From: a virus
Taxonomy: Duplodnaviria; Caudoviricetes
Reading direction: 5' to 3' (one strand)
Virus record (IMG/VR): IMGVR_UViG_3300042554_001750
DNA length: 64,000 nucleotides
Below are positions 1 to 39,452 of the stretch, one piece after another. The notes under the pieces were generated by a model. It did not search any database. It saw nothing but the letters and a program-made list of their open reading frames with translations, and had not been told where the DNA came from. Within the stretch, counting starts at the first letter, position 1, and each line of letters starts with the position of its first letter. Position numbers and translations under genes: made by a program.

Positions 1-1284
1 AAAGCTAGGAATCATGTAATCTTGTATCAAATTTTTGTCAATATAGTGGGCATCTAAAAAGCCCGGACTTCTTAAATAAGGAACATCTAAACCAACTAGA
101 CCATGATGATTTTGACACCGTTCTTTGCGCTGTCGTTGCGTATAGTCACCATCTGCTAATCTGTACCCAAATTGCTCTTCCAAGTCAATCAATGCCATGT
201 CTGGATTATAAATTGATTTCAAATTAGCTTGCCACTCTAATAATTGCTTCATGCTTGTGACACTGAAAATATTGTAAGTACACATAATGGTTGCACGAAT
301 ATTTCCAATTTTAAGCAATTGCTCGTATCTAGTTTTAAACAGTTCAAAATTTAATCCAGGACGCGCATATTCGGCTCTTTCACCCCAACCGTCTACACTA
401 GTAAATACCGTAAATCTTTTAACACACTTGTTGTTTGTGAGTATTTGAATCTTTTCTATAAACTGATCCCACAATTTTTGTGGGGCACCCAGATTACTGT
501 TAATACTAAATTCAAGCTCAGGATTAGGATTATCAATAAACCAATCTATACTGCGAAAGGTTTCTTTACTTAGCAAAGGTTCGCCGCCAGTAATGCGATA
601 TACCTTTAATTGCTTGTAAACTTCAGGGAACCATTTCCAAAACGCATCTACATACGGATTAAACTCACTACTCTTATAGGTGAGGCTATCTAAATCTTGC
701 CAGCCATGACTCCATTGAGAATACTTTGTATTGTCTAATAACTTAATAGGCCCATGTTGCTTTAAATTCTCCACCCATTTTGAACTATATTCAGGTCCAC
801 AATATGTGCAGGCAAAATTACAAACATTACTGAAATCAACTTCTAAGTAGGTTGGTACTATATTATCTTCTGGATCAGTATTAACAATTCTGTCATGCTC
901 ATTTAACGCCCAAGGCTCTAGGCTTTTAAAGAATCTGTCACTATATCCATTGGTATCTTCAACTCTCCAACAGTAATCACATTCGCTTGGTCTTTCATTT
1001 TCAAACATTTCTCTACGGGCCTTTTTAAGGCGGTTCGTATTGAATAATGCAGCAGGATTTTTTTCAATTTCTTCTAATGGAATTTTATGTGGGCTAGGAT
1101 GGTGACAAGAATGCGTCATCCCTGTTCCCAAATGCATTGTAACTTGAGTGAATTTGGCTAGACAAAATCCTTTACCAGTCTCACCTAGTAAATCTTTTAC
1201 TTTATCTAGATTTTCATTACTTGAATCAATATAGTTACTTTTATTTCTAATCCAAATAACATCATTTAATTTTTTCTTACTCAT
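1..1284 (-). CDS. Radical SAM protein with an N-terminal Cys-rich (SPASM/Twitch-like) segment; runs off the left edge; absent from the supplied ORF track
   Basis: Manual translation from ATG at 1284 (TAATG overlap with the upstream stop): MSKKKLNDVIWIRNKSNY...GFCLAKFTQVTMHLGTGMTHSCHHP...CDYCWRVED...FSNVCNFACTYCGPEYSSKW (CxxxCxxC at 799-822)...ITGGEPLL. The segments I translated, including the last 120 nt before the edge, have no in-frame stop. Confidence 0.88.
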   Translation of the reverse strand, partial: MSKKKLNDVIWIRNKSNYIDSSNENLDKVKDLLGETGKGFCLAKFTQVTMHLGTGMTHSCHHPSPHKIPLEEIEKNPAALFNTNRLKKARREMFENERPSECDYCWRVEDTNGYSDRFFKSLEPWALNEHDRIVNTDPEDNIVPTYLEVDFSNVCNFACTYCGPEYSSKWVENLKQHGPIKLLDNTKYSQWSHGWQDLDSLTYKSSEFNPYVDAFWKWFPEVYKQLKVYRITGGEPLLSKETFRSIDWFIDNPNPELEFSINSNLGAPQKLWDQFIEKIQILTNNKCVKRFTVFTSVDGWGERAEYARPGLNFELFKTRYEQLLKIGNIRATIMCTYNIFSVTSMKQLLEWQANLKSIYNPDMALIDLEEQFGYRLADGDYTQRQRKERCQNHHGLVGLDVPYLRSPGFLDAHYIDKNLIQDYMIPSF

Positions 1285-2243
1285 TACCATCCTTCAATTT
1301 GGCGAACAACATCCATTTCTTTAACTAACAGACCTCTGTTATACTTATCGGCACCATAGTGTCGTTTAAAGAATTTGCTTTGCTCGGGGCTTAATGTACA
1401 GATAGGTAGCCCTAGTTTATTTTCTAATTGTGATCCAATTTGCTCGGCTGCATCTTTAGGATCTTTGCCTTCACCATATTCTTTCCATAGTTCAGGGTAA
1501 TTATCAAACCATTGCACATTAGTATGATCCCAGTCACTTAACATCGTTAAGAATGTACCTAATCGCGCGCCGTATATTGCCCAATATCCATTATCTACAT
1601 CACTGCCAACATTCTGCCATATTGTCAAGTTATTAAGATTTCTACTTGAAACTGTTTCTTTAAAGTGTTCTACTGTGGGTACTGCGCCACGATCTAGGCA
1701 CATCTTGACGCCTTCCCTGAAGCCCGCACGCCAAGCTTGAAATGGAGTATAGTTAGGATACGTAGTTGAATAGCAATCATACATGGCCCAATACAAATTG
1801 TCAGTGCTATCTAAACAAAAGTCTGCAATGCGTGTTACATCACCCTCAGTTTGAGCCTCATGAGTTTTCATGTTAGCAACATAAGTTTTTGTCCAACTAC
1901 TCATGCCACCATTGCCATATCGTAGACCATTGATTGCGTTGATAGCTTTCCAACGATATTGCGCAAGTTTATAGTTAGGATCTTTGTCAGTAAAGTCAAG
2001 TTGCAAGTTAAAGAATGATTCATCCGGCATGTTGTCGCCGTCAATAAGAATAAACCTTTCTGTGTCGCTTGCTTCCCCGGCAGCTTTGTGTGCTGCATCA
2101 CTTCCTTTGACCCCATCAACTCTTTTTGCCCAAGGCACCATGTTTTTAATCTTGAGCCAAAATTCTTCTTTTTGCGGTTCATCGTAGCTAAGATAAATGC
2201 AATCCAAATCTACGATATCAACAATGTCATCATCTGTATTCAT
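1284..2243 (-). CDS. Putative GT-A-fold glycosyltransferase (319 aa)
   Basis: ILIDGDN DxD-type motif after GVKGSDAAHKAA; AWRAGFREGVKM helix; recurrent in large phages. Confidence 0.6.
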   Translation of the reverse strand: MNTDDDIVDIVDLDCIYLSYDEPQKEEFWLKIKNMVPWAKRVDGVKGSDAAHKAAGEASDTERFILIDGDNMPDESFFNLQLDFTDKDPNYKLAQYRWKAINAINGLRYGNGGMSSWTKTYVANMKTHEAQTEGDVTRIADFCLDSTDNLYWAMYDCYSTTYPNYTPFQAWRAGFREGVKMCLDRGAVPTVEHFKETVSSRNLNNLTIWQNVGSDVDNGYWAIYGARLGTFLTMLSDWDHTNVQWFDNYPELWKEYGEGKDPKDAAEQIGSQLENKLGLPICTLSPEQSKFFKRHYGADKYNRGLLVKEMDVVRQIEGW

Positions 2244-2571
2244 ATGTTTGCAGCTTCCAGTGGGTTACATCACCCGAATAACTATCATCAACTACAATGC
2301 TTATATCTTCTTTTGCACATTTTTGTCCCACTATGTTGGGCATTAATTTGGATATTATTGCATTGGGATTTACTGTAGAAATTTTCCCATCAATAACACG
2401 AACATCAGGTCTTGCTTGTGCAAATGTTTGAGCATCAATAACAATAAAATTACCAGGTAACTTTTCACAAGTATAGCACACTACTTTACCTGTGTCATCA
2501 TAATATAGTCTGAATTCGGGAGGCTGAATCTGGGGAGCTTCCCAAATAACAATCATTTCATCGTTATTCAT
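2230..2571 (-). CDS. Hypothetical protein (113 aa), coupled within the GT module
   Basis: ORF overlaps both neighbours (ATGA overlap upstream, 14-nt overlap downstream). Confidence 0.75.
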   Translation of the reverse strand: MNNDEMIVIWEAPQIQPPEFRLYYDDTGKVVCYTCEKLPGNFIVIDAQTFAQARPDVRVIDGKISTVNPNAIISKLMPNIVGQKCAKEDISIVVDDSYSGDVTHWKLQTYEYR

Positions 2572-3314
2572 ATAAATTTATTTGCAAAAGATTTAACATG
2601 ATAGTGTACCGGATACATTTGCGGAACTGTATTGATCCGAAATTGATCAGATAAAATTTCATACACTAAAGTATCTGTCCAGTTTTCCGTAGGCAAATCA
2701 TTTATGAACTGTTTCATATGCACCATGCCCATTTGAGTGAATGCTGGTAATGTTGTATTTTCTTCGCCCATAATATGACATGCCAATGCATATACCCAAT
2801 CGGTAGTTGCTTCTTCATCAACATTACACTTTAATACTTTCTTGTATTCGTCCCAATTTTCAAAAATATTTCTAACCAAACTAAAAAACTTTTTAGACTT
2901 TTCGCTCTTTCTAAAATATGTGATAGCGTTATAAACATCAGGTAATTTATTTTCATCTATAAACTTACGGTACGCCCTAGACGATGATATTTCTTGTTTA
3001 AAATTTCTTATTGTAGTGCTTACAACTAAATCATGATTTTTAAGAATATCCCACCAATACTCAATAGAAGTGGGCACATACATATCAGCTTCTAGCTTGA
3101 TTGTATATTCATATGGACTTGCCTCATAAACTTGCCAATCGTTGATTAGTTTCCAGTCACTATTAGGTGCCAAATCGCCATATGGCAACTTTGTGATGAT
3201 TGTAACATTAGACTCGGGCATAACTTTTTTGATGCTAGCCTCTAGAACTTCCGCGCACTTAACATAATCTGTTGTTGCCGTATTTTGTGCAAGTATTACA
3301 AATCCTTTGTTCAT
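2568..3314 (-). CDS. Putative nucleotide-diphospho-sugar transferase (GT8-like, 248 aa)
   Basis: N-terminal beta-strand GFVILAQN, then DYVKCA; YEASPYEYTIKLEAD; C-terminal HYH; paralogous to 3311-4114. Confidence 0.65.
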   Translation of the reverse strand: MNKGFVILAQNTATTDYVKCAEVLEASIKKVMPESNVTIITKLPYGDLAPNSDWKLINDWQVYEASPYEYTIKLEADMYVPTSIEYWWDILKNHDLVVSTTIRNFKQEISSSRAYRKFIDENKLPDVYNAITYFRKSEKSKKFFSLVRNIFENWDEYKKVLKCNVDEEATTDWVYALACHIMGEENTTLPAFTQMGMVHMKQFINDLPTENWTDTLVYEILSDQFRINTVPQMYPVHYHVKSFANKFI

Positions 3315-4114
3315 AGAATAAGCTCCATAAAGTTATCTTTATTCATGACATGGAAGTCCATATCTTTTATGATCGCATATTCTTTACGGATTTTGCCACG
3401 GCGCCAATTATCAAATAGTACAGTATATTCTGTATTAAATGGTAGATCAGAATTTTTATAAACTGATGTTTTTTTACCAACATGAACTAAATTCCAAGGA
3501 ATAATATCCCCGGGTAAAACAGTATGACCATTAGCAATTCTAAGTGCTAGTGTCAGTGCATAATCATTTCTATATACACCGCCCACAAAACTATGAATAT
3601 TTGCATAATGGTCATAGTTTTTCTGAACCATTTCTAAACATTCAAATATTTGTTTTGCTCTTTTGGTTTTTCTGAAAGTAACAACAGTTGCCCATAGTGT
3701 CTTAAAACTGTAGGCGCTTAAAATTTCTTGAGGTGCATCGGGATACATTAAAAAACTTGTAGTGTCATGACAACAAAAGTCAATTGATACATCAAAGGTT
3801 TTTAATAACTTGTTTGAATTAATCATGTAGTCTGTATCAACTAAGATTGTTTCATCATATGGGCTTAATTCAAAGGCTTGGTATCTACCCTTATTAATCC
3901 ATACGCCCCAATCTCTCAAATTATTTTTGTCCGGTTCTGTAATAATTATTTTGTCAAAGTTATATCCGGTAGATGATGTCCGTGATTCTTCATCTGTGAC
4001 AATAGTGACTGGTAAGTCTAAGAAGTGATTGATTCTTTTTGCAGTCTCTTCTGCCATTCTATAATAATCGTAACGGCCACTGTTAAATGCAAATAATAAG
4101 GCTCCCCGTATCAT
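3311..4114 (-). CDS. Putative nucleotide-diphospho-sugar transferase (GT8-like, 267 aa)
   Basis: GALLFAFN...DYYRMA; FELSPYDETILVDTD (DxD); YRNDYA; terminal DFHVMNK. Confidence 0.68.
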   Translation of the reverse strand: MIRGALLFAFNSGRYDYYRMAEETAKRINHFLDLPVTIVTDEESRTSSTGYNFDKIIITEPDKNNLRDWGVWINKGRYQAFELSPYDETILVDTDYMINSNKLLKTFDVSIDFCCHDTTSFLMYPDAPQEILSAYSFKTLWATVVTFRKTKRAKQIFECLEMVQKNYDHYANIHSFVGGVYRNDYALTLALRIANGHTVLPGDIIPWNLVHVGKKTSVYKNSDLPFNTEYTVLFDNWRRGKIRKEYAIIKDMDFHVMNKDNFMELIL

Positions 4115-4416
4115 CTATTGCCTTCTAAATTTTTCCATTCTGCATGCCATTCTTGCATCACAGAGTTATATGTGTTAGACAAAGAATCAAATAATTCTTG
4201 GCGGTTAACTTCAACTGGATTGCCAAAAGTGTCAATTAAAACTACCTTTTCATTAGTTAATGCTGATAGTAATGTAATGGTAATATTGTCTGCCTTCCAC
4301 AACCCACCCTGTTCTGCTATTATTAATTTACTTTCGTATTTTTCTTTTAGGTATGCCTTGGTTGCGTTGTGATTAAATCTAGCTTTTGCCTCTAAAATTA
4401 AGGTTGTGGTATCCAT
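4111..4416 (-). CDS. Hypothetical protein (101 aa), possibly tail-fibre-assembly-like; first gene of the GT module
   Basis: Good SD (AGGAG) and an upstream TAAATA; VLIDTFGNPVEV motif. Confidence 0.6.
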   Translation of the reverse strand: MDTTTLILEAKARFNHNATKAYLKEKYESKLIIAEQGGLWKADNITITLLSALTNEKVVLIDTFGNPVEVNRQELFDSLSNTYNSVMQEWHAEWKNLEGNR

Positions 4417-4432
4417 CTAAAACTCCTAAAAG

Positions 4433-4438
4433 TATTTA
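4433..4438 (-). promoter_or_regulatory. Late promoter core TAAATA for the GT/radical-SAM module
   Basis: Matches the T4-type late -10 box TATAAATA core that recurs before most structural genes here. Confidence 0.6.
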
Positions 4439-4463
4439 GATGGATGAGTATGCGAGATAAAAT

Positions 4464-5414
4464 TTATGAACCGGATACAGTACCAGACACTGTAGGAGAC
4501 CCCCAAGTACTTGAAATATAAGTAGTGCTCGGAGGTCTTATAGTTACAGTTGTAGCTGAACCCGAAGATACTGACAGTCCATTGGGAATTTCATCCCAAA
4601 GAGTGTACAATGTAATTACAGAGCCGGCGTCACCATTTGAACCCTGTGTTCCGTTAGTCGCGGCAATTACTCGTATGAAAGTGCTTAGGTATCCAGATGG
4701 ACCTGTACTTGCTGTTTGCGTAAACAATGTTGTATTGGCCGTAGACAATCCAAAATAACCTGAATTAGTTGATATTGTGGGGGAATTTCCGCCGCCGCCG
4801 ATCTTAGTTACGCCATTGTAACTAGTCCCGGCTATTGTAACAGCACCTGATGTTGGGCTACTTAAAACAATTGTTCCCACATTACTAGCCAAACCGTTAA
4901 ACAATAAATTTATTCCAGTACCCGATGGATGCGAGCAAGTAACTGCTAACTGGCCGCCTGCGTTAAAGAAATATCTAGCAGCATCACCTGAACTAAAAGT
5001 AACAGTATGAGTGAAAGTTATTGCTGAACTCCATGCAGAACCAAATGTTGCAGTATTTGAACTGGTTGAGCCTTGACTAGCTGCATTTAATCTGTTTGTG
5101 TATATTGTAGACAAATTGGTCGGAACAGCACTTAAAAAAGCAATAGTGTTACCAGTTGCCGGAGCTGTAACAGATGTAATTGACGATCCTTGGTGTTGTG
5201 CCGCGCTAGATGTATTGTTAACTAATGATGCCCAATTGGTAGCAGTTACTGTGGTTCCTATTGCTACGTTTGCAACTGCGGATTGTCCATAGCCAGCATT
5301 TGTGCCTCCTGTAGCCCATACTGTATTAAGTTTGTTGGCTGTGGTGACTGGGTTACCACCAACAAGATTGTTGAAGTCTGCGGCTTCAATTAAACCATAT
5401 TGTGCGTAACTCAT
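4464..5414 (-). CDS. Virion structural protein (316 aa, Ser/Thr/Gly-rich)
   Basis: ORF with SD AAGGA; composition typical of a tail/baseplate beta protein; within the structural operon. Confidence 0.65.
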   Translation of the reverse strand: MSYAQYGLIEAADFNNLVGGNPVTTANKLNTVWATGGTNAGYGQSAVANVAIGTTVTATNWASLVNNTSSAAQHQGSSITSVTAPATGNTIAFLSAVPTNLSTIYTNRLNAASQGSTSSNTATFGSAWSSAITFTHTVTFSSGDAARYFFNAGGQLAVTCSHPSGTGINLLFNGLASNVGTIVLSSPTSGAVTIAGTSYNGVTKIGGGGNSPTISTNSGYFGLSTANTTLFTQTASTGPSGYLSTFIRVIAATNGTQGSNGDAGSVITLYTLWDEIPNGLSVSSGSATTVTIRPPSTTYISSTWGSPTVSGTVSGS

Positions 5415-5423: not shown

Positions 5424-6668
5424 TTAATTTATTTTAACAAATGCTTCAACTGTGCCAATGTCATTTGAATTTTTATTTTCTAATGATCGTCCAATTATAT
5501 TAAATGCTGTAGCTTCACCTTGTTCTGCTGCACGGGCCATACCATTACCTGCACTAACTAATCGTTGGCCCTTCTTAACTTTACCGGTTACTTTTACTTT
5601 TACTCTTCCGCCCACGGCGATTGGGGGATGTGTATTATTGTCGCCGGCGCCTGCATTCATCAAATATCCGGCGGTTTCAGATACAACACCAAACACATCA
5701 TCGCTTAATTCGTATTGGACAGCAGTAATTTCTTTTTCGCCACCTAGCTCAACAACGGTTCCGGCATCATAGTAGCGGTCTGCTTCAAATCGTTCTGCCA
5801 AGTCAGCGTATGTTGCATTAAGTCTTGATCCAGATGTTAATGTCCAGTTACCGGTAATGCTACCTGTTGTTGTATTAGCTCCGGTAGAAATTGTTCTACC
5901 ATTAAACACTGAGCTTCCACCTACAACGCCTAAATTACCAGTGTATGTTGGTAAATAAGCTTGAACATTACTGTCGTTATATGTTCCAGCGTATGTAATT
6001 GGGTTACCAGTTAAATCCATGATACAGTTAGCATTTGCAACTTTAATACCTAAAGTCCCTGCACCTGAAATAACTAAATTACCGGTATTCATCCACACTG
6101 TGGTTCCAGCAACACCGTTTGCTGTTCCGGTACCGGTTGCAGTCCAAGTTCCAGTTAACGTACCTGCAGTCGTTGTTCCGCCAGTAGTAATTGCCTGAGT
6201 TCTCAATGTGCCGATATTTGCAGTGGTTATGTTGCCATCAGCAATGTTTGCACTTGCAGAAACGGTTAAGTAGTTAAATGACGCTGCATTGGCATTACTA
6301 TTATTAGTTGCTGTAATATTATTAGCAGTTAAATTGCCAGTTACTGTTACTGCACTAAAGGTTGTTGCACCACCGCTTGATGTTGAGGTCAATGTAGACC
6401 ATGCACTTGCATTAGTTTCACCGTCTGATGGACAAACTTTTAATGCGTTATTGTTAGTATCATACCAAAGTTGACCACGCAGTGGGTTCGCTGGAGGGGT
6501 AGAATCTGCGAAGTTTTCTACCATGTGTGTAAAGTTAGTGTCTAACGATTGACCATAACCAGCATAATTACGACCTGGTAGGCCTAATGGAGTACTTGTA
6601 GTGTTAATAGTACCATCGGGTATTGTTGTTAGAACTGTACCGTCGCTCTTAACAATTGTATATGCCAT
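5424..6668 (-). CDS. Tail fibre/spike with C-terminal intramolecular-chaperone (peptidase G2/S74-like) autocleavage domain (414 aa)
   Basis: N-terminal baseplate-anchor motif (GRNYAGYGQSLDTNFTHMVENFA...GQLWYD); GNLT/GNWT repeats; C-terminal YADLAERFEAD...GVVS...PIAVGGRVKVKV. Confidence 0.72.
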   Translation of the reverse strand: MAYTIVKSDGTVLTTIPDGTINTTSTPLGLPGRNYAGYGQSLDTNFTHMVENFADSTPPANPLRGQLWYDTNNNALKVCPSDGETNASAWSTLTSTSSGGATTFSAVTVTGNLTANNITATNNSNANAASFNYLTVSASANIADGNITTANIGTLRTQAITTGGTTTAGTLTGTWTATGTGTANGVAGTTVWMNTGNLVISGAGTLGIKVANANCIMDLTGNPITYAGTYNDSNVQAYLPTYTGNLGVVGGSSVFNGRTISTGANTTTGSITGNWTLTSGSRLNATYADLAERFEADRYYDAGTVVELGGEKEITAVQYELSDDVFGVVSETAGYLMNAGAGDNNTHPPIAVGGRVKVKVTGKVKKGQRLVSAGNGMARAAEQGEATAFNIIGRSLENKNSNDIGTVEAFVKIN

Positions 6669-7487: not shown

Positions 7488-10400
7488 TCAAGTTTGGTCT
7501 TGGTTTAAGAAAATTGCACTTGCAGTTGTGCTTATCTGTAATGGATCGCCCAATGTTGTATTAAAGGTATAACTATTCCAAGTCTGGTTATACTGTATGT
7601 TTGTCATACGGTTATTAGACAAATAGCTGTATACCTCAGAGTATTTAGGAATAATTACCTGTTCTCCGGTACCATTAGCACCGCGTTGCAAGTTATATAA
7701 CGCATTTAACGCTATTACTGTCCCTGATCCAGGAATAATGGTATTGTTATTGGTCGCAGTAAATGTGACCCCAACAGTATTTGAGCTAGCCCCATATAGT
7801 GTAAAATCGGTAGATCCTACTGTTTCTATTGTATATTTTTGACCATATACAATTTCACCTGCAGTGATCACCGGATTAACAGTTCTAAATCTAATTTGCT
7901 CACCATTGATAGATACCAAATTACCTTCTAGAACCACAATCGTTAAACTATCCCCTGCGGTTATGTAATTTCCCTGATTAATTCTCAATATCGGAGACAA
8001 TTCTTCAACGACAATTTCATAATTTGAGCTTCCAATGAGTTGTGATGTTGTATTATTGTAGACTGAAATTCCTGTAATAATTCTCTTATCTGCGGTCAAT
8101 CCAATATCATAAACACCATTCAATAATGAAGGAGTTGTAACATTTTGAATTACATTATCGGTCAAATGAACAATATCGTTTACATATATAATGTTATCTG
8201 TATTGTAAAGATCCTGTGTCATCCAAGTTCTAGATAATGAGTTAGCACGATACACAGTTGCTTCATTTACTGAATTTACAGTCAATACATAAACTTCTTC
8301 GTTCGGTGTTGCGCTTGGCATCATACTTGTAATAATCACAACATCGGTAGTAATTATTGTTTCTAAGATGCTAATCTGATTACCAGCATTGATGCGCAAG
8401 CTTGATGACGGTACTCTGTAGCCGTTGACAGTTACCCAAAGTCTATCTACATTTACTTGTTCCCATTGAGAAATAGTAATAGTGTTAGGTGCTGCAGTAC
8501 CACTTGTTAAAGTCTTAACTGTACCATCATATGTTTCACTTATAGTGATATTGTTACTTGCTCTGGTCTTAATATAATAAACAGTTCCTGTAACCAAACC
8601 ACCAATGATAGTTGTACCAAGTGGATCACCAATCTGAGTAAATACTATTGGTGTTCCTGCAACTAAACTAGAACCATCGGCTACAGTAATTATATTTCCA
8701 GTTGAACTGGTCGATGTTACTGTGCTAGTCTGCAATGTAAATGTGTCAGAAACCCATACATATCCAGCACCAGTGTAAGCAGTAATCTGAGTTATTGGGC
8801 TGTTGACAGCATTAAATGCAGGATCGTATTCAGTTTGATAAATCCAGAATGATGTATCATTAATAACCTGAACATAATATAGATTGTTGTTTAACTGCGT
8901 AGAACCAGTCGTGCCGTCAATTCTAACTATATCGTTTGTAACAAAGTTATGATTTATTCCTGTTGTTATTCTTACTGCAGGATTTCCACCAACAATTACA
9001 TTCATCGTACCTACAGCGTCTGATACCGGGACTAGTGTTCCAGTACTGTCTTTAATAGTAAATTCGGTTAGACTATCAACACTTCTTACAAAATATACAG
9101 TACCATCTGTTAATACTCCACCAAAGCTAGTACCTTGGAATATTACTATATCATTAACAGTGAAATTAGTTGTACTAATCACAGTTATATAATCTGTCGC
9201 CGAAGTTGTTGCTGTTGCTTGAGTAGATGCAGAAGGTGAAGAAATATTATTGTTAATAGAAACAATATTTGCTACAGTTTCACCAGTAATACCGAATTGA
9301 CTATTCAAATACTGTCTACTTGTATCATTAAAAGTAGTGACAGCAATGTTATCATTTAAAGAAGGAATAGTAGTAAAGGTAATTGTCTCGGCACTAGAGT
9401 TGATAGTGTAGTCCGTATTATCAAGACGCAATCCATTTATTTCCACTACTGCATTTGCTGCATTGTTCAAGTCAACAAAGTTGGTTAAGTTAAATGTACT
9501 TGTAACTCCATCACCAACAAACATTTGAAGTTCAGGTATAGAATATCCATATTGTTGAGGGTTAGTTTCTCCAAACAATGTATAACTTAAGAAGTCAATA
9601 CCATTTACATATGGGGCGCTAAAAATAATCTTAGCTTGAATTCCGTTTGGCTGTAATCCAAACGCATAATCACGGGTTATTAGTTGAGCACCACCAGTAT
9701 CTGTTGTTAGAGCAATAGCAGGACCACCTTGAGTTAAACTAATTGTAAACTCATTGTTGTCTACAATAGATTCAATATAGTAAGTTGTTAAGGGTTGAAT
9801 TACTCCACCAAAAATTGTATTACTGAATACAATCTTATCTCCAACTACCATAGCACTTGTTGTGTTGCAAGTAACTGTATTGGTTGCCCCGTTAGTTTTT
9901 GTAACAGTCCCTGTTGTTCCATGTACTAACTTTGTACCATTATGATAGATTAAAGGATCTGTCCAAGTAACACCTGATCCAACCTGTATAATAGCATACA
10001 TGGACCCTGTGTCATCTGTTACGGCAAATGTTGGTCCGGCTACGCCAGTAGATAAGTCAATACTAGTAGAAACTGTAATGCTTGAACTTGCCAAACTTAT
10101 TGTTTTTACATAATAATTTGTATCCTCTAATAGTCCACCAAAAGTAATACCTTGGAATCTAATTGGATCGTTCAAGTTAAATTCTCGTACACTTTCGCAT
10201 ACAATAGAATTTGATAGACTTATTGTTTCAGTAGCTTGAACCGAAACTGGATTAGTATTGGGTTGAATTACCCCACTGCCATTAAAAGAAGGTGCAGAGT
10301 AATTACAATTTACAAATATCTCATTAAATCCAGTAGTTTCATTGTATCTGATAGGATCAGTCTGTGTATCAGCCTTTACTAACTGATTACCGTTGCCTGT

Positions 10401-13400
10401 TTCGTATATATCTACACGCAATGAATCTGTAATTGGACTGAATGGGAGTGCGTTGTTCAGAGTAATGATAGAATCAATCCAATTAACGGTATAATCAATA
10501 GTTTCATATAAGCGGGTAGACAATCCTGTTACTCCACTAGTTTGATATACACTTATTTGTGCGGGTGTTTGAGCAACATTATGGAATACATATTCAGTTT
10601 GAAGTTCAAATGAAGGAGTCAATTCTAACGATATTACATTAAATCCAACATGTTGATATTCTGTTGCTTCCCAAGTTGTGCCGGGCCGGGTAGCAACAGT
10701 CATCATTAATGTGTCCGTAACTACACCAGGTACTAGTTCTTCTGGTCCATAACCATCAGTAAATTCACCACCTTGAATATCGTAAGTTGATTCCAACTGA
10801 ATAATGATGGCATCGTCTACCCAAGTTACGCCGCCGTCATAACTAATTAGTGCTGTATTGTTTTCACCAACAACTAATATTCTTCCATTGGTTTCATCAA
10901 CTGCAATACCTTTTAAATTGTTAGTTGTATTAGAAACTTGAGTTGTCCATGTGGCAAAGTCAGTACTTGTTACGATAGTACCATTATTTCCAACTGCTAT
11001 TAAAGTTTCAAAAGTGGCTGTTCCAGTTCCCGATCCTGTGCCCAAAGCCACAAAGATTGTACCCGGGTTATTATTTGCAGCACCAAGTGAAATAAAGTCT
11101 GTAGTACCTGCGGTTTCAATAATATAAACTTGTCCAATGATAAAGTTACCAGCAGTAATAATAGAAGAAACAAATTTAACATCATTAAGTGTTTCTTCAT
11201 CTGCTACTGTAACTGTAGTCAAGAATACAGGAGATGCGGTAGTTAATGCTACAGTAGGTATTAATGATGAGGCAGAACTTAAAACAATTGTATTATCGCC
11301 CGTGTCAACTGACTTGACCCAATAATTTGTGCCAGTAGTTATACCACCAAAGCTAGAGCCGGTGAATTTTACTTTTTGTCCCACTGTAAATGTAGTTCCT
11401 GGAACAATTTGAACTTTGTTTGTAGTTCCATAAGAGTTTAAAACTACTGCTTCATTTAAACCATTCCAATTATTGCCATCAAATGATTTATAAATTATAC
11501 CATCTTCACCTACTGCAATAATGTTTCCAACACCAGTACTTGTGAAAGTGCCACTGGTAACTGCTCTTAATCCTTTATAATTTATAGGGTTAAACTGTGT
11601 CCAGTTAGAACCATTTAATGCAGCAATAAAAGTGCCTCTTGGATATATATTTCCGCCTATTTGTTGTTCTCCGGATCCTACTGCTATTAGTCCGTTGAAG
11701 CCTGAATTTATATTGACCCCTGTTAAACCATAAACAGTATAACTTAATGAGGGTAAATAATAAGGATTAATTGCTGACCAATTATTTGTATCCGAGCTAA
11801 TTAATATTGCGTTTGTACCGCCAGCTGCATAATAATTTTGACTGCCAGTATTATATACACCGATACTATTAATATTATAGTTTCCTGCAGTACCTTTTAC
11901 AGTCCAAATTTCTCCATCTGTGCTCTTAAATATTGGAGTTGCATAATTTGTAGATGTTACTAAATACTCGCCATCGTGATATAAACTATCTGTAAGATTT
12001 ACATTACTTCCAGCTAACTTAGTAGATATCCAACTATTTGCTTCTGTCGCAATTGCAGAGTAATCAGCGGTATTGAAAGTTACATAGAATTTATCTAAGC
12101 CATATACTGCACTGGTTGAATCTACATCAGTTTGTGTAAAACTGGTTGAAGGTAGTATAACATCTAATGAATATTGATCGTCCGGCGCAAACGCATTACC
12201 CAAATATGTACTGTTTGGGTAAGTAATACCAGTAACTAGCTGAGTTAAATCTAAGCCCGGCATGTTAACAGTAGGTTGATAGTAACCCATAATTCTGTCA
12301 AGCGCATTCAATCTACGGTCACCTGAGTCTAGTAGTTCCCATTTTCCTAAAACAAATTCAGTGTCATTGTTACTTACAACACAAACATATACTTGATTGT
12401 TGAACTTAACAATACTTTGATTGAAGTAGAAGGGTTCCGGAAGTAATGCATAATCTCCTGATTTAGCAACAGTCATGGATCCTGTTGCATCAGCAGAAAC
12501 ATTAAATGTAGTGCCTCCTGGGATCTCTGATACTGTAATTGTAGTAGATGTTGGCTTTGACTTGATATAATAAGTCTGCCCTAAAGTTACTCCACCAAAT
12601 ACAGTGCCGGTAAATACTACAGGGTCATTCAAGTCAAAATCACTAGAACTGGTTACAGTAAATCTATCAGTTGACGCTGTACATGCAGTAACCCCAGTAG
12701 AAGTTATACCATTGTATCCAAATCCTATGCCACTAACTGGAATAGTCATCAATGAGTTAGAGTAAACTTCTAATTCATTTTCACTAATTACCTTTAAGTA
12801 GTAGTCTGATGATGTTGCTGGAATTGTTCCATTTACAATAAATGATGTGACTTCTCCGTTTGCATCAATGCTATTTACAATTAAGTTTACATCATTAGCA
12901 GGAGTTGTTCCACCAAAGTTTGTACCGGGTATGTTGATAGTATTTTCTAATGCATAACCTTCGCCCGCATTGATGATAGTAACTTTATATCCACCTAATA
13001 TCCAGCTTATGTCATAAGTAGCTGAAGTGGTTATTTCTTGTGTCAATGTTACTGTTGCTGTTGCTGTTGCACTAGATAATGATACTTCGGCACCACCAGC
13101 TGAGGTACTTACTGTAATGTATGGTTCTCCAGTACCGGTCATTGAGCCATTCTGAGTAGTCAATGTTACTACAACGCCGCCAGGAAAATCAGTAATTTTG
13201 AAGTGCGTGCTATCTATGATAGATTCAACATAATAAGTTTGATCTATCTGTATTCCACCTAATCCAAATCCAGAGAATGTGATAGGCATATCTACATACA
13301 AGGATTCGGTAGTGTCACATGTTATTTCATTTGTAGATGAACTAGTGCTTGTAGCTGCGATTGATATTACACCAGTGTCTAAAACATAGTATGTTGTACC

Positions 13401-16400
13401 GGTGGTTAATCCGCCTATGTTTGTGTCTATTGTAAATGGCATGTTTACATAAACATTAGTTAATCCGCCGCTACTAGTAGATAACGCTACTCTATTAACA
13501 GTAGTAATAGTCGCACTAATACTTCTTTCAATTAAGTCGTTAGTTGTCTCGCCGGTAAATGGTCCTGAGAATATACCACTAGTTGGGTAAAGAGTGAACT
13601 TTTGACCATTGATTTGCCCTGGACTTACTGGTAGATTGACATTTATTGTCATGTTACCGGTTAAAGTTTCAGTAATTTGTAACACATCTACTTGACTAGT
13701 CAATGTCGCACTTGATGAAGCAGACGCTGTACTTAGTGACAAGATTGCCCCATTAACTTGTGTAGAGATTTGTATTTGATCTAAACCCAATACAGTAGCA
13801 ACATAGTATACAGTACCTGCAACAATGCCACCGACCGATTCGTTGAAAATTATTGGATTGTTAACCTGTAGTTTTGTTGTTTCTTCAGCTAATAAAACAA
13901 TATTTGGACTTTGAGTTCCCTGTACTGATACAATTAACGGGTCAGGATTTCTTGAAACAGTAAATGTTTGTTTGTCACATACCGAAGTAATGTAATATAC
14001 ATCATTTTCTATTACGCCACTGAACACATCACCGGTAAAGAATACTGGTAAACCAGTATAGAATCCTATTGTTCCGCCTGTGCCCAATAATGACAATGGT
14101 GCAGTAATAGTATTGGTTGTTTTATTTGTTGCTGTGCAACTGTAAATTCCGGGATAGTTGATAGTTAAGACAGCAGTATTAACTACTTCTCCTACAAAAC
14201 AATTTAATCCGGCAGCAGAGATAGTTTGATTTCCTAAAGTGTTGTTAATCTTAAACTCTGTAGAACTTACAATTTCTGTAACATAATAAACTTCACCATA
14301 AACTATATTGCTAGCTCCGACTGCCCCGATAAATTTAACAGGCATTCCAATATAGAAACCAATTGTAGTACCTGAGGCGGTATCGCCGATTCCGCCACCT
14401 AGAGGCGCTAAGTCAATAATGTCAGTTCCAGCATGAGTAGCTACAACATTTCTAGCGAGGCTTGAGAATGTAACTTGTTGGTCATTTGTTACGTTTACAA
14501 TTTCAAATGCTACACCTTGCCCGCTAGCTAAAATGCTTTCAATTGGTGGTTGAGTGCTTTGCAATAGTATAGAAGAACTTGAAACAGATTCACTATTATT
14601 ATACTGACCTGCGTAGTATGCACCATAGAAATTGCCAGCTTGCCAATCTATAATCTGCGAATCGTAAGTTGTTCTATCAAACCTCAATGTGATATTATTT
14701 TCACGAACTGGTGAGCTTGTGCCAATAGTATATGCTCTTGCACCTAAGTTTAGATTTTGGTTATTACCTGTTCCAATACCATGTAGAGGTACTCGGTCAT
14801 GATCATTAATAGCATTAGCATAGTTGTTATAAAATGCTATAATAACAGTTGGGTTATTTTCTAAAACATTAACATAATACCATTGGTTGTTGACTAATCC
14901 CGGTATGCGGGTGCTATCAGCTCCGACTACATACTGAACCAGATCTCCTGTTTGTAGTAGAGGTGCATATAATCTAACTGAATCAGTGCTTATGATAACA
15001 TCATCACTAGAGAATGTAATTACAGTTGCAGGCTCAATAATTATTTGAGGGGTTGCTGCATAACCACTGCCTGAATTAATTACATCAATTCTAAGCACTG
15101 AGTCCAATGCCATAACTGCTTGCAATTGCGCAGGAATTACTGGGCCGCTGTACTGAGTAAATAGTACCTCTGTTGTTAATTCTTGCGCTACATTTATTTG
15201 GTATGTGTTAGTTGTTAATTGTGAAACAATTATAGTTTGAGGTATTATGCCTGGTGCGTCTAAGTAATCACCTACATTTACTTGTCCATTGACAATGGTT
15301 GTAATTGTTAATGTGCTTCCTGTTATAGATCCATAATATTCGGCAGTTTTAGTAATCTGCGGATCAACATAAGCTGTAATTTTTGGCGGATTCACATATC
15401 CTCGTCCTGCATCAACTACCACTACAGGAGGCAAATCCATAAATATTTCTTCACCGGGCAAATGTGCAGTAACAGTAGTTTCATTAACGCCGCGTGTTAG
15501 TCCAAGTAAGCTTCCTGTTGCAGAGTCAACACTAGAATAACCGATTTCTTCATTTCCAATTTTTATAACACCATTAATAGGGAAACCATATGCATTGTTC
15601 ACAGTTAAAGAAGTTGAATTCAATGTAACATAGGAAGTTAAACGGGACATTGGATAATTTAATTGTCCAAACAATTGTGTTGAATCACCTTGTTGAACAG
15701 CTTGACCAATTTTAACGCCATAGTTTTGTTTCCATTGCGTATAGTTCGGATTGCTCCAAATACTATTATCAGGAGTAAACTGGTTATCAGTATTTGGATT
15801 TATATACACTAATTCAGGTGTAATAAATTCTCGGCTTGTTGAACTATATTGAGCTGGTAAATCAAAGTCAGTTACATCACCCTCAAATGTGTCAGATCCA
15901 GTATATTCAAATAAGAATTCTTTAATTACCACATGATATGGTTTAACTTCATTTAAGTAGCCTGACAAGAAATCTTGATTGTCACTTTGGAATACTTCAA
16001 TAGGTCTTAATTCACGAATCTTATGTGCAACATCAACAAATGATGTTTTATTCAACCAAGGTAAATAATTTTGATTTTCTATAGTTTCACTTTGAATGTA
16101 TTCAAACAACAGTATTAATGACCTATTTCTATAAATTAATAGTTCATTAGTGTAGATTTGCTCATTCAACGCACGAATAATAAAGCGTGTTTCTTCACTT
16201 GGATACTCATCATAAGGGGTCGTGTCATAGAAATTATCACCAAAACCCAATCTAGCAGATGCATAATCCCATAATGCAGAATTAAATTTAATAGTACCAT
16301 TCTGCAAACCAATTCTTGTCCAACCGGTTACATCTTTGATGTATGTTTCGCTGAAACCACGTGAATTCTGTTTTACAGTAACGATGGTGCCGTTAGGTAC

Positions 16401-19400
16401 AGATAATGTAGACAAGTCTGAGTACAATGGAACTTGTAGTGCAGACTTTGTACTGTCACTATATCCATCTGCCCACCAGTTTGTGAATTCCCAATATCTG
16501 CCATCGCTTACATCATACTTTTCACCTTCTTCAAATAAGACTACAGTAGGATCATTTGGATCATAAATTGTAGGATTCTTTTCATTTAAGAAAGTTATGT
16601 TTTCTCTAATCTCAGCTATCGGGAATTGCGAAAGAATTTCATTTGCATATAGCAAATAATTCTTAAGTGCCATAAAACGGTTTAAGAAGAAACTCTGTCT
16701 AGGACGAGCCAAGATACCTGTTTGAACTGCCTTTGGTAAGTATGGATTAGGAACCACTTGACCGGTTTCGTCAACACCAGATAAGCTGTCTAGCAATCTG
16801 TCATATAAACCTTGAGGATTAACACTAAAATTATAATCGCTGTTTACACTTTGATTGCTTAAGTTAGTAGGTATACCTGGCAAGAAATCATCAGCATAAT
16901 TTGCTCTGATCAAGCTAAACTGATTATGTGCCACATCCTGATTTGTTCCTGTAGCAAATCCAATATGGAACACGCTGTCATTAGCGTTTAGATATTCTTG
17001 GATGTTATACAAGCCAAATGCATTTGGTAACAATGGAACAAAATAGCTGATGCCTGAATCTTCAGGATTAGCAATATAAGACTCTATCACAGAATCTGCT
17101 AAACTCTTTCCAGCTAGTGTATAAACAGTGTTTGTATTTCTGACCCAGTAATAATATGTAGGTATTAAATTGCCCGCATCGTTGAGATTGTAATTAATTA
17201 CAAATTGAGTTATATCAAATGGGGTTCCGGGTCCTGCATAATCTACTGGTAGTTGTGTGCTTTCAACCCAAGTAAACGCTTGAACTGTGCTACCAGGGAA
17301 TAATGTGCCCCAATATTGGCTATTATATACTGCATCATCTTGATGGTAGTTAACGAATCTTAATGTTGAAGTGTTAAGCCAAATCTGTCCAACTTGTACT
17401 GGTCCCCATGTGATGCTAGTTTCTATATTACCCTGATTGTTGTATCTTGCAGGATCATTGTTAGAAACAAAATCAATATTCTGTCTAACAGCACCTAATA
17501 TTTTGCCCTGCAATGGGTCAATGTAATCTAGGTTTACTAAAGTTTCATTAGTTTGGGCGCTGTAAATTTGTGCGTTGTTAATTTTATCAATATCTACTAC
17601 AGCACTTGAACTTCTGTAAACACTCCAATCTTGTTTACCTGTGATGTTGTTATAACCTATGACTTGACCATTATCAAATCCAGGTCTGAATGTTGGGGTG
17701 CCGATTGCAACGGTGTTATCATTGAAATCTAAAGCATGACCGTATAATGGTTGTGCACCAAAATCTAAGTTTCTTGCATTTACGCTTTGAGCATATACAT
17801 ACTTACCTGTATTATTAATACTTTCAGCATAGACAGGCAAATAGTCAAACATGTAGACGGCGCCAGCATTGTCAAATTCTTCTATGAATTGAGTTGTGTT
17901 ATTGTCAAATATGGTATCATTATCAAAGTAATTGTCATCAGAGAAATCAAATGTTGTTTCACTGAATCTAGATCCAGTTGGTGCGCTTGCAACAAAAGAG
18001 CCATTAGATCCAAACTTAACAGTTGATCCAAACTGAGTGGGACCTTCTGTATGTGGGCACTGTATAACTTGTGTTTCTGTAAATAGTGTAATCCCCAACT
18101 CAGCTAGAACTGTATTGTTCATTACACCAAGAGTTAACTGTTGATTGGGCACTGATAAATCGTTATTAATCAATCCGATTATCAGTCTATTATCAGGAGT
18201 TGCTGTTGCAGTAACATTTGTGATATTAGTTTGATTAATGGTACTTGCTACACTAGATGCATTTCCGGGTGTTAATTTAACCAGATATCCGTTGATTAAT
18301 ATATTTGAATTTGTTGTTAATGCTACCGGGTCTGTTCCTATGATGTAACCATAGTTTGATCCACTGTTGGTAAATCTATAAACTGCACCTTCTTGTAATT
18401 GTGTGTTTAGTTGGAACGGAGCTCCAATAATAATTTCATTACCTTTTGTTGCAATATCCAAACTGTGTCCAAATTCTACACCTATTAATGGGGTAGTATC
18501 TGTGCTGAATCTTTGTGTATTAACAAACAATTGACCACTGACTGTAATAATATCACCCGCAGTCAATGATCCATAGTAGTATAAAGTATTATTAATAATT
18601 GCATATTGATTGTCATCAATTAAAGTATTATTAACACTTAAGTATATAGGAGTATTTTGTACGCTTACTGTTGCGTTTACTGAACCTTGTGTTGTAACAG
18701 TAAATGCAGAAAGACTTGCCCTAGATGTTTTGATAGTTATGTCATTGCCAGACTTGCTTGCAATGTAATACACTTGATTAGGACTGATTAAAGTATTTTG
18801 CAGTCCTGCTCCCAAGAATACAATTGGATCGTCAACATTTAATGAGGCTGCACTGGTTGTCAATGTTAGAGTACTTGGTGCAGTTGTAGAAGCCAAAACT
18901 TTACTGACAGTTGTAGGGGTATATGCTAATTCAAATGATTGCGGTATGTCGGGTTGACTGTTATTCTGTACTTCAATTTTTTGAACTATACGGTTGAATG
19001 CATATGCGTAACCATAGTCATCAATAGTTACGCTGTAACTTACATTAGGAGCACTAATAACAATATTTTCGCCAGTGTAATCAGTTGCAATAGCATATCC
19101 AAAGTTGTCGCCAGCAACCAAACCAGATACTGTTACTGTTGTTGCAAATTCATATTCATCAGTAAGTTGTGACTTTCTATATACATGTACCAAATTTGGA
19201 GATACTGTATTGTCAAAGTCACTAATAAAGATCCAATTTTTATCACCTGAAATTGCAACTGCTTGGCCCCAGTTAACTGAATTAGCAGGAGCACTAATAG
19301 GTGTTTGGTATACTACTAAGTCATCAGATGATATAGTTTGATCTAGTCTATAGATGTGTACTTCCTTAGAACCAGTTGGCTCACTTATTACAAAAATATC

Positions 19401-22400
19401 ATCAGCATATTCAATTGTAGTACCAAATGATGTGCCATGGGTGATAGTTTGTATTAATTGCCAATCTTGTAATAATTCATTATAAGTATAACGGTAAACA
19501 GCACCTTCGGCTTCATCTCCGATTAAATATCCTAAATTGGTAGAATACGCAACTGCACTACCGAACGCTTGACCAGTAGGTCTTGTAAATTGCTTTTGAT
19601 AAGTGTAATTAAGGTCTTTTCTAAATACAGCCCAAGAACCATTATTATTTGTATCTACCCAAACTTTATTTTTTTCAAATTCAGTGTTCAGTAATGGTAG
19701 ATTGATAATATCTGCAGGGGTTGCAACTCTTTGTTGCTGAAACTTAAATCCTACACCTTGTCCTGTCAATGTTATAATTGAAGGATCCATTTGTAAATTA
19801 ATAATAATTCTGTATGGATCTACTATAAGAGCAGCGATGTAGTACCCATTAACGGCTGTGTCAAAATTTAATATCGCTAATGGATCGTATTGTGTTAAGT
19901 TATGTTGTTCTTTAAATGTAATTGTTACAGTGCCATTTAGATTATTCAATGCACCAATTACTTGCCCCATGCTTACTGGAGAATAAACATTCCATGTTCC
20001 TAAATAATTTGCAATCCAAACATAATCGCCAACATAGAATCTGTCTAGTGGAACTATCAATCCATTTTTATCAACGGCCGCTGCAATCTGTGACAGATAG
20101 AATGATGACATTTTTACATCATTTAAGTTCACATAACCGGCATCAGGGAATAATGTTGAAGGCTCTTCACTTGGGACAGTAGCTAGAATATTAGGATCAG
20201 TTATTGGTCTATCATAATTATACAGACTGCTTAACGGAACTTCTTGTTGTGAACCTTCTGTATTTGATCCATCAGTTAGTGAAACAATGCTTGGATTTCC
20301 AACAAGACTGTTTTGATTAAGTTTAAAATCTACAAAGTTAGAGTTTAATACTCCACCAAATTCTCCAGACTTAATAGCCCAGTTTTCATAGACTTCATAA
20401 TCAATTCCACCTTGCGGTAAATTAGCTCCCCTAAAGGCACTAACAGCATTAAGTGTACCTTTATTCTTAATCATGTTTTTGTAAACATTGACTTGAGTAA
20501 TGTCAGTCAAGTCTGCAAGTGCAAGGTAATCACGAGGACGATAGCCAATCAAACTAAAACTTAACAGGTCTGCATCTTTTTCTAGATTAGCCCTATCTAC
20601 ATCATAATACAATGTGCTCTCATAACTGCGAGTGCTAGAATTAGATAATAATCCTTTTTGAATTTCACCGTACTCAGTTAATTTCCAATCTAGTTCGTTA
20701 AAAATATTATTAGGTTGAACGACCTTTAAAGCAGTCCAATACTTGTTTTTGTATTTTACAATGCTGCCCTTAGTGTACTTAAATTCTTTACTCCACTCGG
20801 TTATATTGTCTTGATTTAAAATGAAACCGCTAGTGGTTACGGTACCATTCCACTCGGCTGTCTTAGTACCACGACATGTAATTCTTAATTGTCTTAATCC
20901 AGTAATTAGGTTATAAATTACATCATCAAATAATGTTATATTGTCAAATACAATTCCATGTTCAATATTGTTAATATTGAATTGACCATATGCAAGTGTA
21001 TCTCCTGTGTTCTGCGGGACAACATTAAACAATGTTTGGTCTCTTACGATACTCAAGTCTTTAGTTTGTATTGGATATAAATTTTCATTTAAAATGAAAT
21101 TAGATTGTTGGAAAGTCAGTGGCTGAACTACATAACCGTCTTTATTAATTGTTAAACTCTTTGCAGCAGGATTTACTGTAACAATACTGCCTTGTTCCCA
21201 ACCAGTTTGTGCCCAGTATAAGAACTCGGCAACCATTTGTTTCCAATTAACTTCTAAACCGTTTTCAACTTCTTCAAACACCATACCATTGGCTTCTAAA
21301 TAGAAACCATAGTTTATTAAGAACTGTGATACTTCTTGAATAGTATAAAATATAGTGCCGTATGGTACTATAACTTCAGTTTCTGAAGGTTTTGTATATA
21401 CAGTTACTGAGGTGCTTTCTACATTAATAATTTCAGAGTCTACATTTATTCTTGGTGCTAATGTAGTGAAGTATGCCTGTGTCTGAGAATTACCATATAC
21501 GGCATAACCCTCTGGTACTATCTGAATAATAATACCGCTGTAAATTAATTTTGTAAACGGTTGATTTTCATATAGTAATAAAGAATAACTTTCATCAGGT
21601 ATTAACAATGAGGCGTTGCGTGAGTTAGGTGTTCCCTTTTCAACATAGAATTTCAAGAAGGTCTTATCACTAAAGCCCGCCATTCTGTACACTAGACGGA
21701 CATCCAAATTCTGTAGTAATTCTGTAACTTTGGTTGTAGCATCAATACCGATTTGCTTTTGATAATCAACAATCCAGTTAATGTATGATGTTTTGGCAAT
21801 ACCATTGCCATAAATTTGAATATCTGATATAACTAAATGGCTTCTATCGTTTACAAGATATTGATTGAATTCGTAATTATACTTGTAGTTGTCAATGTCG
21901 GCAGCTAAGTTAAAGAACTTAGCAGGCTTCATCAATGCTAAAATTCGCATTAAATCAAATGGATATGAACTGCTTCTACGGTAGCTCAACTCAACAGGAG
22001 AATCATCGCCGACTTTCCAATCTCTTTGGAAAAGATTAGGATTATAATTGCCTACAACAGATGCAAAGGGAGATAGTAAATTACCAGCACTATTAACTGG
22101 AAGCACTTCTAGTAATCCAGGTCTAATAGCTTGTTCTATAACTACTGGGTTACCGTTGTTATAGTCAATACCATTTTCTAAATCTTCCCACAACACCAAG
22201 TTGTCACTAGTATATGGTGCAGGACCATATCTATCTTCCCACCATGCTGGCTTGTTTGTGTAACCAATCATTTCCCATGGCGTTAAATTGGGAGTTGTAG
22301 TATCATAAAAATATTGGTATATACCTCTCCAATACCCTTGTTCTATGGGCTGTCCATTTAACTTGTTACCACTGTCGGTATAGTTATATGTATATTGGTC

Positions 22401-38549: not shown

Positions 38550-39452
38550 ATGACTTTACCAACCAAAAAACCCGTCAATTATCTTAACAATAAAGATATA
38601 TTGAAGGAAATTCATGAAAGCAAAACAACATATTGTTACTACACAAAACAAGAATACAACCGTTACGATTATATTGTGGACATGCCCCATGAAACATTAG
38701 AAAAGTGTTTTGAGCATGCGAACAAACCAGAAATTATTCAATTAGCCAAAGAAAATCGCGCAGCTAGGTTATCAGTAGAAACCGGTGAAAAAGTTGACCC
38801 GAACACTATACTAACTACCGATTTAGTCTTTAGAGTTATGACTTGGGATCATATTCCATTGAGTCAGAAACAACCCAGAAAAACTGTAAAAAAGAAAAGC
38901 GCCAAAGACATATTTGACTTTGACGAGCCGGATCCCGATGAAATCTTTGCAGATTTAGAAGATAGTACAACCAAAGATGAAGTAGATGACATGGTTCATG
39001 TCAAGGTTAATTTTCCACCATTTCAACACTACAAGATTGACGAAACCAATACATTTTATTGTGTCGGAAAGAGTCATTGGACTGGTGGTTTAAAGATGGG
39101 TCAGTTCAGCAAAGACCACGGTAAAATTACCAATAAATTAGCTCGCATGTATATTATGATGTGCGAAAAGTACGCTATGAAGTATAACTGGAGAGGTTAT
39201 ACATATAATGACGAAATGCGTAACAGTGCCATTCTTCAGTTGACGTATGTTGGTTTGCGTTTCAACGAAGCCAAATCTAGTAACCCATTTGCTTACTACA
39301 CCGCAGCTATTACCAATAGTTTTTGTCGTGTACTAAACACTGAAAAGCGTAATCAAAACATCCGTGATGACATTCTAGAACTAAATGGACTTAACCCAAG
39401 TTGGTCTAGACAGGGTGCTGGCGCCGGTGGCGCAGTCATGTTTGACGAATAA
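38550..39452 (+). CDS. gp55: Late-transcription sigma factor, gp55-like (300 aa)
   Basis: VNYLNNKDILKEI; WRGYTYNDEMRNSAILQL...RFNEAKSSNPFAYYTAAITNSFCRVLNTEKRNQNIRD. Confidence 0.88.
   Translation: MTLPTKKPVNYLNNKDILKEIHESKTTYCYYTKQEYNRYDYIVDMPHETLEKCFEHANKPEIIQLAKENRAARLSVETGEKVDPNTILTTDLVFRVMTWDHIPLSQKQPRKTVKKKSAKDIFDFDEPDPDEIFADLEDSTTKDEVDDMVHVKVNFPPFQHYKIDETNTFYCVGKSHWTGGLKMGQFSKDHGKITNKLARMYIMMCEKYAMKYNWRGYTYNDEMRNSAILQLTYVGLRFNEAKSSNPFAYYTAAITNSFCRVLNTEKRNQNIRDDILELNGLNPSWSRQGAGAGGAVMFDE

Follow-up and report, generated by a model that had tools for sequence, protein, structure and literature searches.

A conserved block of candidate glycosyltransferase and radical SAM genes next to tail-fibre genes in a T4-superfamily jumbo phage as a candidate virion glycosylation system

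The 64,000-nucleotide (nt) stretch of IMG/VR virus record IMGVR_UViG_3300042554_001750 analysed here (the window) belongs to a T4-superfamily jumbo phage, and its first 4.4 kb carry six overlapping minus-strand genes encoding three candidate glycosyltransferases (GTs), a radical S-adenosylmethionine (SAM) enzyme and two small conserved proteins. These genes are tentatively regarded as the conserved head of a longer glycan-building operon beside the tail-fibre module. Glycosylation of virions or fibres by a late, cytoplasmic system is the best reading of their function, although the evidence is circumstantial and the reading is held as possible rather than probable. An earlier note on this DNA had described the same genes, placed directly downstream of fibre and baseplate genes, as a candidate virion-glycosylation module. 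Open reading frame (ORF) coordinates and junction sequences bore out the six-gene layout, Pfam and PHROG calls upstream bore out its position, and the GT-A folds, radical SAM assignment, late promoter box and fibre linkage likewise stood. The module extends beyond the window, and a near-identical contig shows the 4.4 kb to be the operon head only. The late box and the genes behind it, all on the minus strand, are:

4432-4441, minus strand: T4-type late promoter box ATCTAAATAC, core TAAATA at 4438-4433
4111-4416, minus strand: 101-amino-acid (aa) conserved protein, function unassigned; first gene 3' of the late box, its stop overlapping the next start (ATGA)
3311-4114, minus strand: 267-aa GT8/glycogenin-like GT-A candidate of retaining type, from its predicted fold and invariant D93-x-D95 and H211
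2568-3314, minus strand: 248-aa candidate GT, paralog of the 267-aa protein (BLASTP, hhalign, phrog_1903)
2230-2571, minus strand: 113-aa conserved protein, function unassigned; 14-nt overlap with the next gene
1284-2243, minus strand: 319-aa GT2-like GT-A candidate, from its predicted fold; most conserved gene of the block
1-1290, minus strand: radical SAM enzyme, N-terminal 430 aa of 525, cut by the window edge (NCBIfam NF033640, N_Twi_rSAM)

The junctions comprise three ATGA overlaps, one 14-nt overlap and one TAATG, the last becoming an overlap of 7 nt when translation is taken to begin at the first ATG. The 101-aa protein had no family match in Pfam, NCBIfam or PHROG, nor was a family match obtained for the 113-aa protein.

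Predicted folds of the three glycosyltransferase candidates

Structure prediction supports GT-A folds with retained acidic metal-binding motifs for all three GT candidates, in the case of the 248-aa protein by paralogy. The earlier labelling of these genes as GTs thus holds at the level of fold, through Foldseek searches of the kind that had been proposed, and not at the level of family, as none of the three received a GT call from Pfam, NCBIfam or PHROGs. PDB sequence and profile searches with the candidates returned nothing significant, and a match to GmaR in a PDB search (E 0.23) was disregarded.

For the 267-aa protein, an AlphaFold model built from 74 sequences (pLDDT 87) placed glycogenin and other retaining GT-A enzymes of families GT8 and GT6 at the top of the Foldseek results (E 2e-7), with all top rows being GT8, GT6 or GT24 enzymes and LgtC among the matches. 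Structural comparison with glycogenin (VIA Z 16.5) aligned 203 residues at 3.5 Å root-mean-square deviation and ~10% identity. Alignments showed D93-x-D95 to be invariant within the family, and D95 and H211 to be invariant across both paralog families. The likeness to glycogenin and GT8 extends to the GT-A fold, and perhaps to a DxD and a conserved His that seem to lie at comparable positions, but not to primary sequence, with neither the 267-aa nor the 248-aa protein matching the Pfam Glyco_transf_8 profile, NCBIfam or PDB sequences. The 248-aa protein is a distant paralog of the 267-aa protein (BLASTP E 6e-10, hhalign probability 97%) in which E75-A-D77 lies in register with the DxD; it was assigned to phrog_1903 and is counted as GT8-like by its paralogy to the modelled protein.

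The model of the 319-aa protein, from 66 diverse relatives (pLDDT 93), consists of a GT2-like GT-A domain (residues 1-165) and a helical C-terminal domain, the latter half having no structural match. Foldseek returned PBCV-1 A64R first, followed by WrtF, RmlT, TarP and BcsA, and VIA comparison of residues 1-165 gave Z scores of 8-10 (top 10.1) to B4GALNT1, WrtF, SpsA, A64R and other GT2-type enzymes, a list that also includes nucleotidyltransferases of the same fold. Viral GTs, one of them from mycobacteriophage Che8, were matched in BFVD. Within D68-G-D70, both aspartates are almost invariant in the 66 relatives, some relatives of the protein are fused to GT-B domains of EryCIII/GT28 type, and the only Pfam Glycos_transf_2 matches were sub-threshold ones in two relatives, the 319-aa protein itself having none. 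Relatives of the protein that were looked up for their gene neighbourhood lay on short, uninformative contigs. The family is large, with >8000 close metagenomic homologs on contigs of up to 531 kb and with 1141 clusters at 50% identity, and has no Pfam model.

Late-type promoter, conserved core and variable radical SAM tail

The TAAATA core lies 22 nt 5' of the first ATG, that of the 101-aa gene, with an AGGAG ribosome site at 4426-4422. Across the window, TAAATA occurs within 50 nt 5' of 15 of the 31 genes, compared with two to four genes for unrelated hexamers of the same composition; it is the most frequent of all hexamers of its composition, and shifted forms of the same motif rank next. 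These boxes precede wedge, portal and fibre-like genes, among others. At the block itself, ATCTAAATAC is kept with small variations at -21/-22 of the 101-aa gene in 40/40 distinct relatives, within an otherwise variable spacer. The window also encodes a sigma factor of the matching type:

38550-39452, plus strand: gp55-like late sigma factor (phrog_12791, E 2.6e-73), the factor expected to read TAAATA boxes

The block thus has the hallmarks of a T4-type late unit: its -10 element is TATAAATA-like, a -35 element is lacking, and the window encodes a gp55-like sigma factor. Because the box is both conserved and enriched, sigma-70-like sites showed no enrichment and no terminator was found between the fibre gene and the operon, late transcription is a well-founded inference from these sequence features. 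The late box that had been proposed at 4433-4438 is accordingly upheld by a motif frequency above chance, its conservation and the presence of the sigma gene.

A synteny comparison, one of the checks suggested in the earlier note, was conducted on 128 related loci from ~120 distinct contigs and revealed a fixed core. The genes for the 316-aa Ser/Thr-rich fibre-like protein directly upstream of the block, the 101-aa protein, the two GT8-like candidates and the 319-aa candidate were colinear in 124/124 loci holding all of them, down to ~30% identity. The 101-aa gene was present in 127/128 loci, and the 113-aa gene, where found, lay after the second GT and ahead of the 319-aa gene. Median identities to the window were as follows:

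319-aa GT candidate: 76%
267-aa GT candidate: 69%
316-aa Ser/Thr-rich fibre: 67%
248-aa GT candidate: 62%
101-aa protein: 56%
113-aa protein: 54%
best radical SAM: 35%

The island of the window phage was examined over its first 9 kb, drawn from the window and a 98%-identical IMG/VR contig that continues past the window edge with genes still overlapping one by one. Downstream of the truncated gene, that contig carries, in order:

second N-twitch radical SAM enzyme
SGNH/DUF6071 protein
two unassigned proteins
RmlC-like epimerase
short thiamine pyrophosphate (TPP) E1-alpha-like protein
third unassigned protein, a paralog of one of the two before
SDR epimerase/dehydratase

Gene content 3' of the core differs between contigs and includes tandem arrays of N-twitch radical SAM genes, with 144 copies in 40 loci and between 1 and 11 per genome; one relative carries 11, and another carries six in tandem (eight over the cut-off altogether). 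A radical SAM gene that had been viewed as a single accessory enzyme is thus one member of a family reaching 11 tandem paralogs in relatives. In relatives the arrays are followed by genes for a carbamoyltransferase, B12-type radical SAM enzyme, UDP-glucose dehydrogenase, sugar C-methyltransferase, DegT aminotransferase, GT2 and SGNH proteins. No membrane segment was found in any protein of the module, nor any multi-pass protein of flippase or polymerase type in the islands of three relatives. The stability of the core, set against the hypervariability of what follows, suggests that a surface structure is under diversifying selection, and by analogy the arrangement resembles surface-antigen loci.

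The radical SAM assignment itself was confirmed by NF033640, which the window fragment matches at 278 bits (E 1e-82) and the full-length 525-aa enzyme of the 98%-identical contig at 298 bits, against a curated cut-off of 170 bits. Its CX3CX2C motif, CNFACTYC (C157, C161, C164), is invariant across 34 paralogs, as are C43 and C107 of the N-terminal auxiliary Cys cluster, with C62 and C104 nearly so. The enzyme agrees with NF033640 in score, motif and Cys cluster, but stands apart in that phage genomes carry up to 11 copies in tandem; the family is one without an assigned substrate or solved structure, and no solved structural relative was found in PDB searches.

As the 34-paralog alignment was too divergent to serve as a seed, bacterial genomes were scanned with a tighter radical SAM alignment. 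This yielded 78 genomic loci, mostly in Bacteriovoracaceae, Bacteroidota and Polyangiaceae, in which the neighbours were mainly further radical SAM genes, with some sulfotransferase, SGNH, PMT_2, GT2 and epimerase genes and few PqqD and ABC-transporter genes. The bacterial genes also occur as tandem paralogs, for example at L084:11320-12693, near sulfotransferase, SGNH and PMT_2 genes, where the Pfam SPASM segment is N-terminal. A reading of these neighbourhoods in terms of ribosomally synthesised and post-translationally modified peptides (RiPPs), prompted by 12 SPASM matches, was weakened by this placement: because SPASM is N-terminal in the one such neighbour inspected, the bacterial 'SPASM' neighbours are probably N-twitch paralogs. 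Judged by gene content, the bacterial neighbourhoods lean towards work on glycans, without settling the substrate.

Several further observations were made on the islands. A family of ~440-480 aa with no Pfam or NCBIfam match regularly ends the radical SAM arrays (cluster 1 in 18 related loci) and is duplicated in the island of the window phage (L004:8448-9863 and 11013-12452, plus strand), its conserved part being the C-terminal 150 residues. In a 333-kb relative, ~11 tandem overlapping ORFs of 63-91 aa with a C-terminal motif ending LFLLRW(S/G) lie between N-twitch genes (L035:14897-17285, plus strand); they may represent precursor peptides or else a family of small domains. The fibre and core order also recurs at 30-50% identity on contigs binned into marine metagenome-assembled genomes (MAGs). 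Five contigs (L055, L057, L059, L113, L119) come from MAGs labelled Haliscomenobacter, Verrucomicrobia TMED56, Betaproteobacteria TMED41 and Rickettsiales MED657; four of them hold phage fibre genes, the GT core and radical SAM genes in the phage order, and L055 shows only the second GT, 113-aa and 319-aa genes plus radical SAM. All of these MAG contigs are probably from jumbo phages.

Virion glycosylation and the alternatives to it

Virion glycosylation is favoured because of the combination of GT-A folds with DxD motifs, the late box, the fibre synteny, the lack of export machinery, the nucleotide-sugar tailoring genes held by the islands and the variable tail. The most attractive acceptor candidate is encoded next to the block:

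4464-5414, minus strand: 316-aa fibre-like protein directly upstream of the block, Ser/Thr 31%, charged residues 3.8%; candidate acceptor

This protein stands out as Ser/Thr-rich and almost uncharged, with the highest Ser/Thr content and lowest charge of all window proteins. Under the proposed mechanism, the 319-aa GT2-like enzyme would add a first sugar to a conserved acceptor, most likely this fibre protein or else another virion protein, and the two faster-evolving GT8-like paralogs would lengthen it. The task of the N-twitch radical SAM enzymes, and of the variable genes that follow the core, would be to produce or alter unusual donor sugars or to alter the glycan once attached, the candidate tailoring set comprising SGNH, RmlC-like, TPP E1-alpha-like and SDR proteins and, in relatives, also carbamoyltransferase, B12 radical SAM enzyme, sugar C-methyltransferase and aminotransferase. 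The outcome would be a glycan coat on fibres or virions that varies by lineage. A more far-reaching version, considered unlikely, is that the tandem N-twitch paralogs act iteratively on the glycan or on the Ser/Thr-rich fibre and, together with the three-GT core, build an unprecedented lineage-specific virion surface polymer, tuning host range or protecting the particle. To our knowledge, no radical-SAM-tailored protein glycan has been described from any virus, and virion glycosylation by phage enzymes has been documented experimentally only in mycobacteriophages.

In those phages (Che8, Corndog and Myrna, in work by Freeman and colleagues in 2023, as cited in PMC12619734 and PMC12801897), phage GT operons reportedly glycosylate virion proteins, the acceptors being the capsid and tail-tube C-termini. 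The likeness to the present block lies in GT-A genes placed beside structural genes and in the Che8 GT among the fold matches of the 319-aa protein. The mycobacteriophages differ in being siphoviruses of actinobacteria whose operons have two to four GTs and lack both radical SAM arrays and a large sugar-tailoring island, and no sequence similarity between the block and their glycosylation operons was detected. Chlorovirus PBCV-1 A64R (PDB 2p6w), which Foldseek ranked first for the 319-aa protein (E 1e-4), is likewise a cytoplasmic viral GT-A enzyme acting on a virion protein. The likeness is at fold level only (12% identity, TM 0.41 by target), A64R comes from a eukaryotic virus, and it has no counterpart to the helical C-terminal domain.

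One cultured phage carries the core. Ralstonia phage RsoM2USA (MG752970, genes 347-355) is the sole record among 50,697 cultured-phage records in which the 267-aa, 319-aa and radical SAM proteins all have homologs. Gene order is the same and the core lies 3' of a fibre homolog, while the proteins are only 29-39% identical, the radical SAM gene is single and the genes are all annotated as hypothetical. A blastn search of the region against cultured phages gave no match, and the 316-aa Ser/Thr-rich protein had no detected homolog in RsoM2USA. The product of its gene 356 is a virion protein confirmed by mass spectrometry (PMC8504454). Gene 358 (L001:606-1583), annotated as hypothetical, encodes a nucleoside diphosphate-sugar epimerase/dehydratase (Pfam Epimerase, E 1e-52) and sits inside the structural block, with the tail sheath gene on one side and genes for virion proteins on the other.

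Several points weigh against virion glycosylation. Structural modules of T4-like phages commonly keep their gene order, so linkage to the fibre genes is by itself weak evidence. The fibre type of the window is widespread in Rak2/PA5oct-like jumbo phages without a GT block, 80 cultured jumbo phages among them, so that the fibre does not need the block and the block is an accessory of one lineage. The virion proteomics of RsoM2USA, limited to major gel bands, is silent on glycans (PMC8504454). Finally, the lack of membrane segments is also compatible with a host target, because the GT8 enzymes of the lipopolysaccharide (LPS) core are soluble and act on lipid-linked acceptors.

This last point keeps host-envelope remodelling in play as the best-surviving alternative, though one judged quite unlikely. 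Here, soluble GT8- and GT2-like enzymes would modify the LPS core, O-chain or another envelope glycan at the cytoplasmic face, which would stop superinfection or keep progeny off the debris of lysed cells. GT8 is the classic LPS-core family, with LgtC among the fold matches of the 267-aa protein, and the bacterial N-twitch genes adjoin PMT_2, GT2, sulfotransferase and SGNH genes. The host recognition cluster of pelagimyophages (Zaragoza-Solas et al. 2020, PMC7029224), in which GT8, LPS-type sugar genes and radical SAM cassettes were described at annotation level, was read in the same way, that study favouring a change of host O-chain for these similar cassettes. Like the present island, that cluster is hypervariable and adjoins tail-fibre genes, in T4-like myophages of aquatic habitats, but no conserved five-gene core, late box or N-twitch identity was reported for it, and the comparison is one of description. 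Another paper, on moraphages (PMC12619734), was set aside as a comparison, since it concerns another lineage and merely lists GTs as core genes. Arguing against host remodelling, the sole conserved promoter is late-type, which would leave little time for a new envelope glycan to reach the surface before lysis; the position of the block is fixed after the fibre genes, not among early genes; and the island parts examined hold no initiating phosphoglycosyl transferase, flippase, polymerase or ligase.

The two remaining alternatives are less likely than either virion glycosylation or host remodelling. The first, which appears improbable, is a combined radical and glycosyl modification of a peptide, protein side chain or small molecule rather than a sugar coat; in one variant the N-twitch arrays would act in RiPP-like fashion on the fibre protein or on small precursors, with the GTs adding sugars later, and in another the product would be a free glycoside. 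SPASM/twitch radical SAM enzymes often mature peptides, PqqD and ABC-transporter genes lie near some bacterial homologs, and one relative has the ~11 tandem small ORFs with a common C-terminal motif between radical SAM genes. Conversely, the bacterial 'SPASM' neighbours mostly appear to be N-terminal-SPASM paralogs and not classical maturases (one neighbour checked), nucleotide-sugar enzymes dominate the phage islands, and no precursor-like array occurs in the window or the 98%-identical contig. DNA hypermodification, with the GTs glycosylating modified bases and the island supplying exotic sugars against restriction, is very unlikely: phage GTs commonly glycosylate DNA and the hypervariable tail would fit an arms race with restriction systems, but the promoter is late-type, the location structural, the block devoid of base-modifying or nucleotide-metabolism genes, and the SGNH, carbamoyl and C-methyl tailoring typical of surface glycans.

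That aquatic T4-like phages carry cassettes of GT and radical SAM genes next to their fibre genes has already been published at annotation level. New here are the fold support for three GTs, the division of a five-gene core from a hypervariable tail across ~120 contigs, the late box in all 40 relatives checked, the N-twitch expansion, and the recognition of RsoM2USA as a test system, which makes the question directly testable. Were the block to glycosylate fibres, the phenomenon would extend to very abundant aquatic Gram-negative jumbo phages and be tied to host recognition. The block also offers a genomic handle on two large families that lack a function, the 319-aa GT-A family and the N-twitch radical SAM family.

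Structural genes around the block

Beyond the 316-aa gene, the upstream region continues with a second fibre gene; PA5oct, RaK2 and K64-1 have homologs annotated as structural proteins of the virion:

5424-6668, minus strand: 414-aa tail fibre; N-terminal anchor conserved, C-terminal chaperone domain of Peptidase_G2/IMC type (Pfam, PHROG)

Further upstream are genes for a 6498-aa protein, a gp6-like baseplate wedge, a gp25-like protein and a gp5-like hub; a portal gene lies past the sigma-factor gene. The 6498-aa protein is encoded by a single ORF at 7488-26984 (minus strand), which separates the baseplate wedge gene from the fibre genes, and its counterpart in RsoM2USA, ORF361 (2541 aa), is a confirmed virion protein (PMC8504454). 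At the opposite end of the window, 56596-64000 (plus strand) encodes three more fibre-like proteins (520, 1492 and >444 aa), each behind a TAAATA, that are rich in Gly, Asn, Ser and Thr and almost uncharged, and which are possible further acceptors of a glycan.

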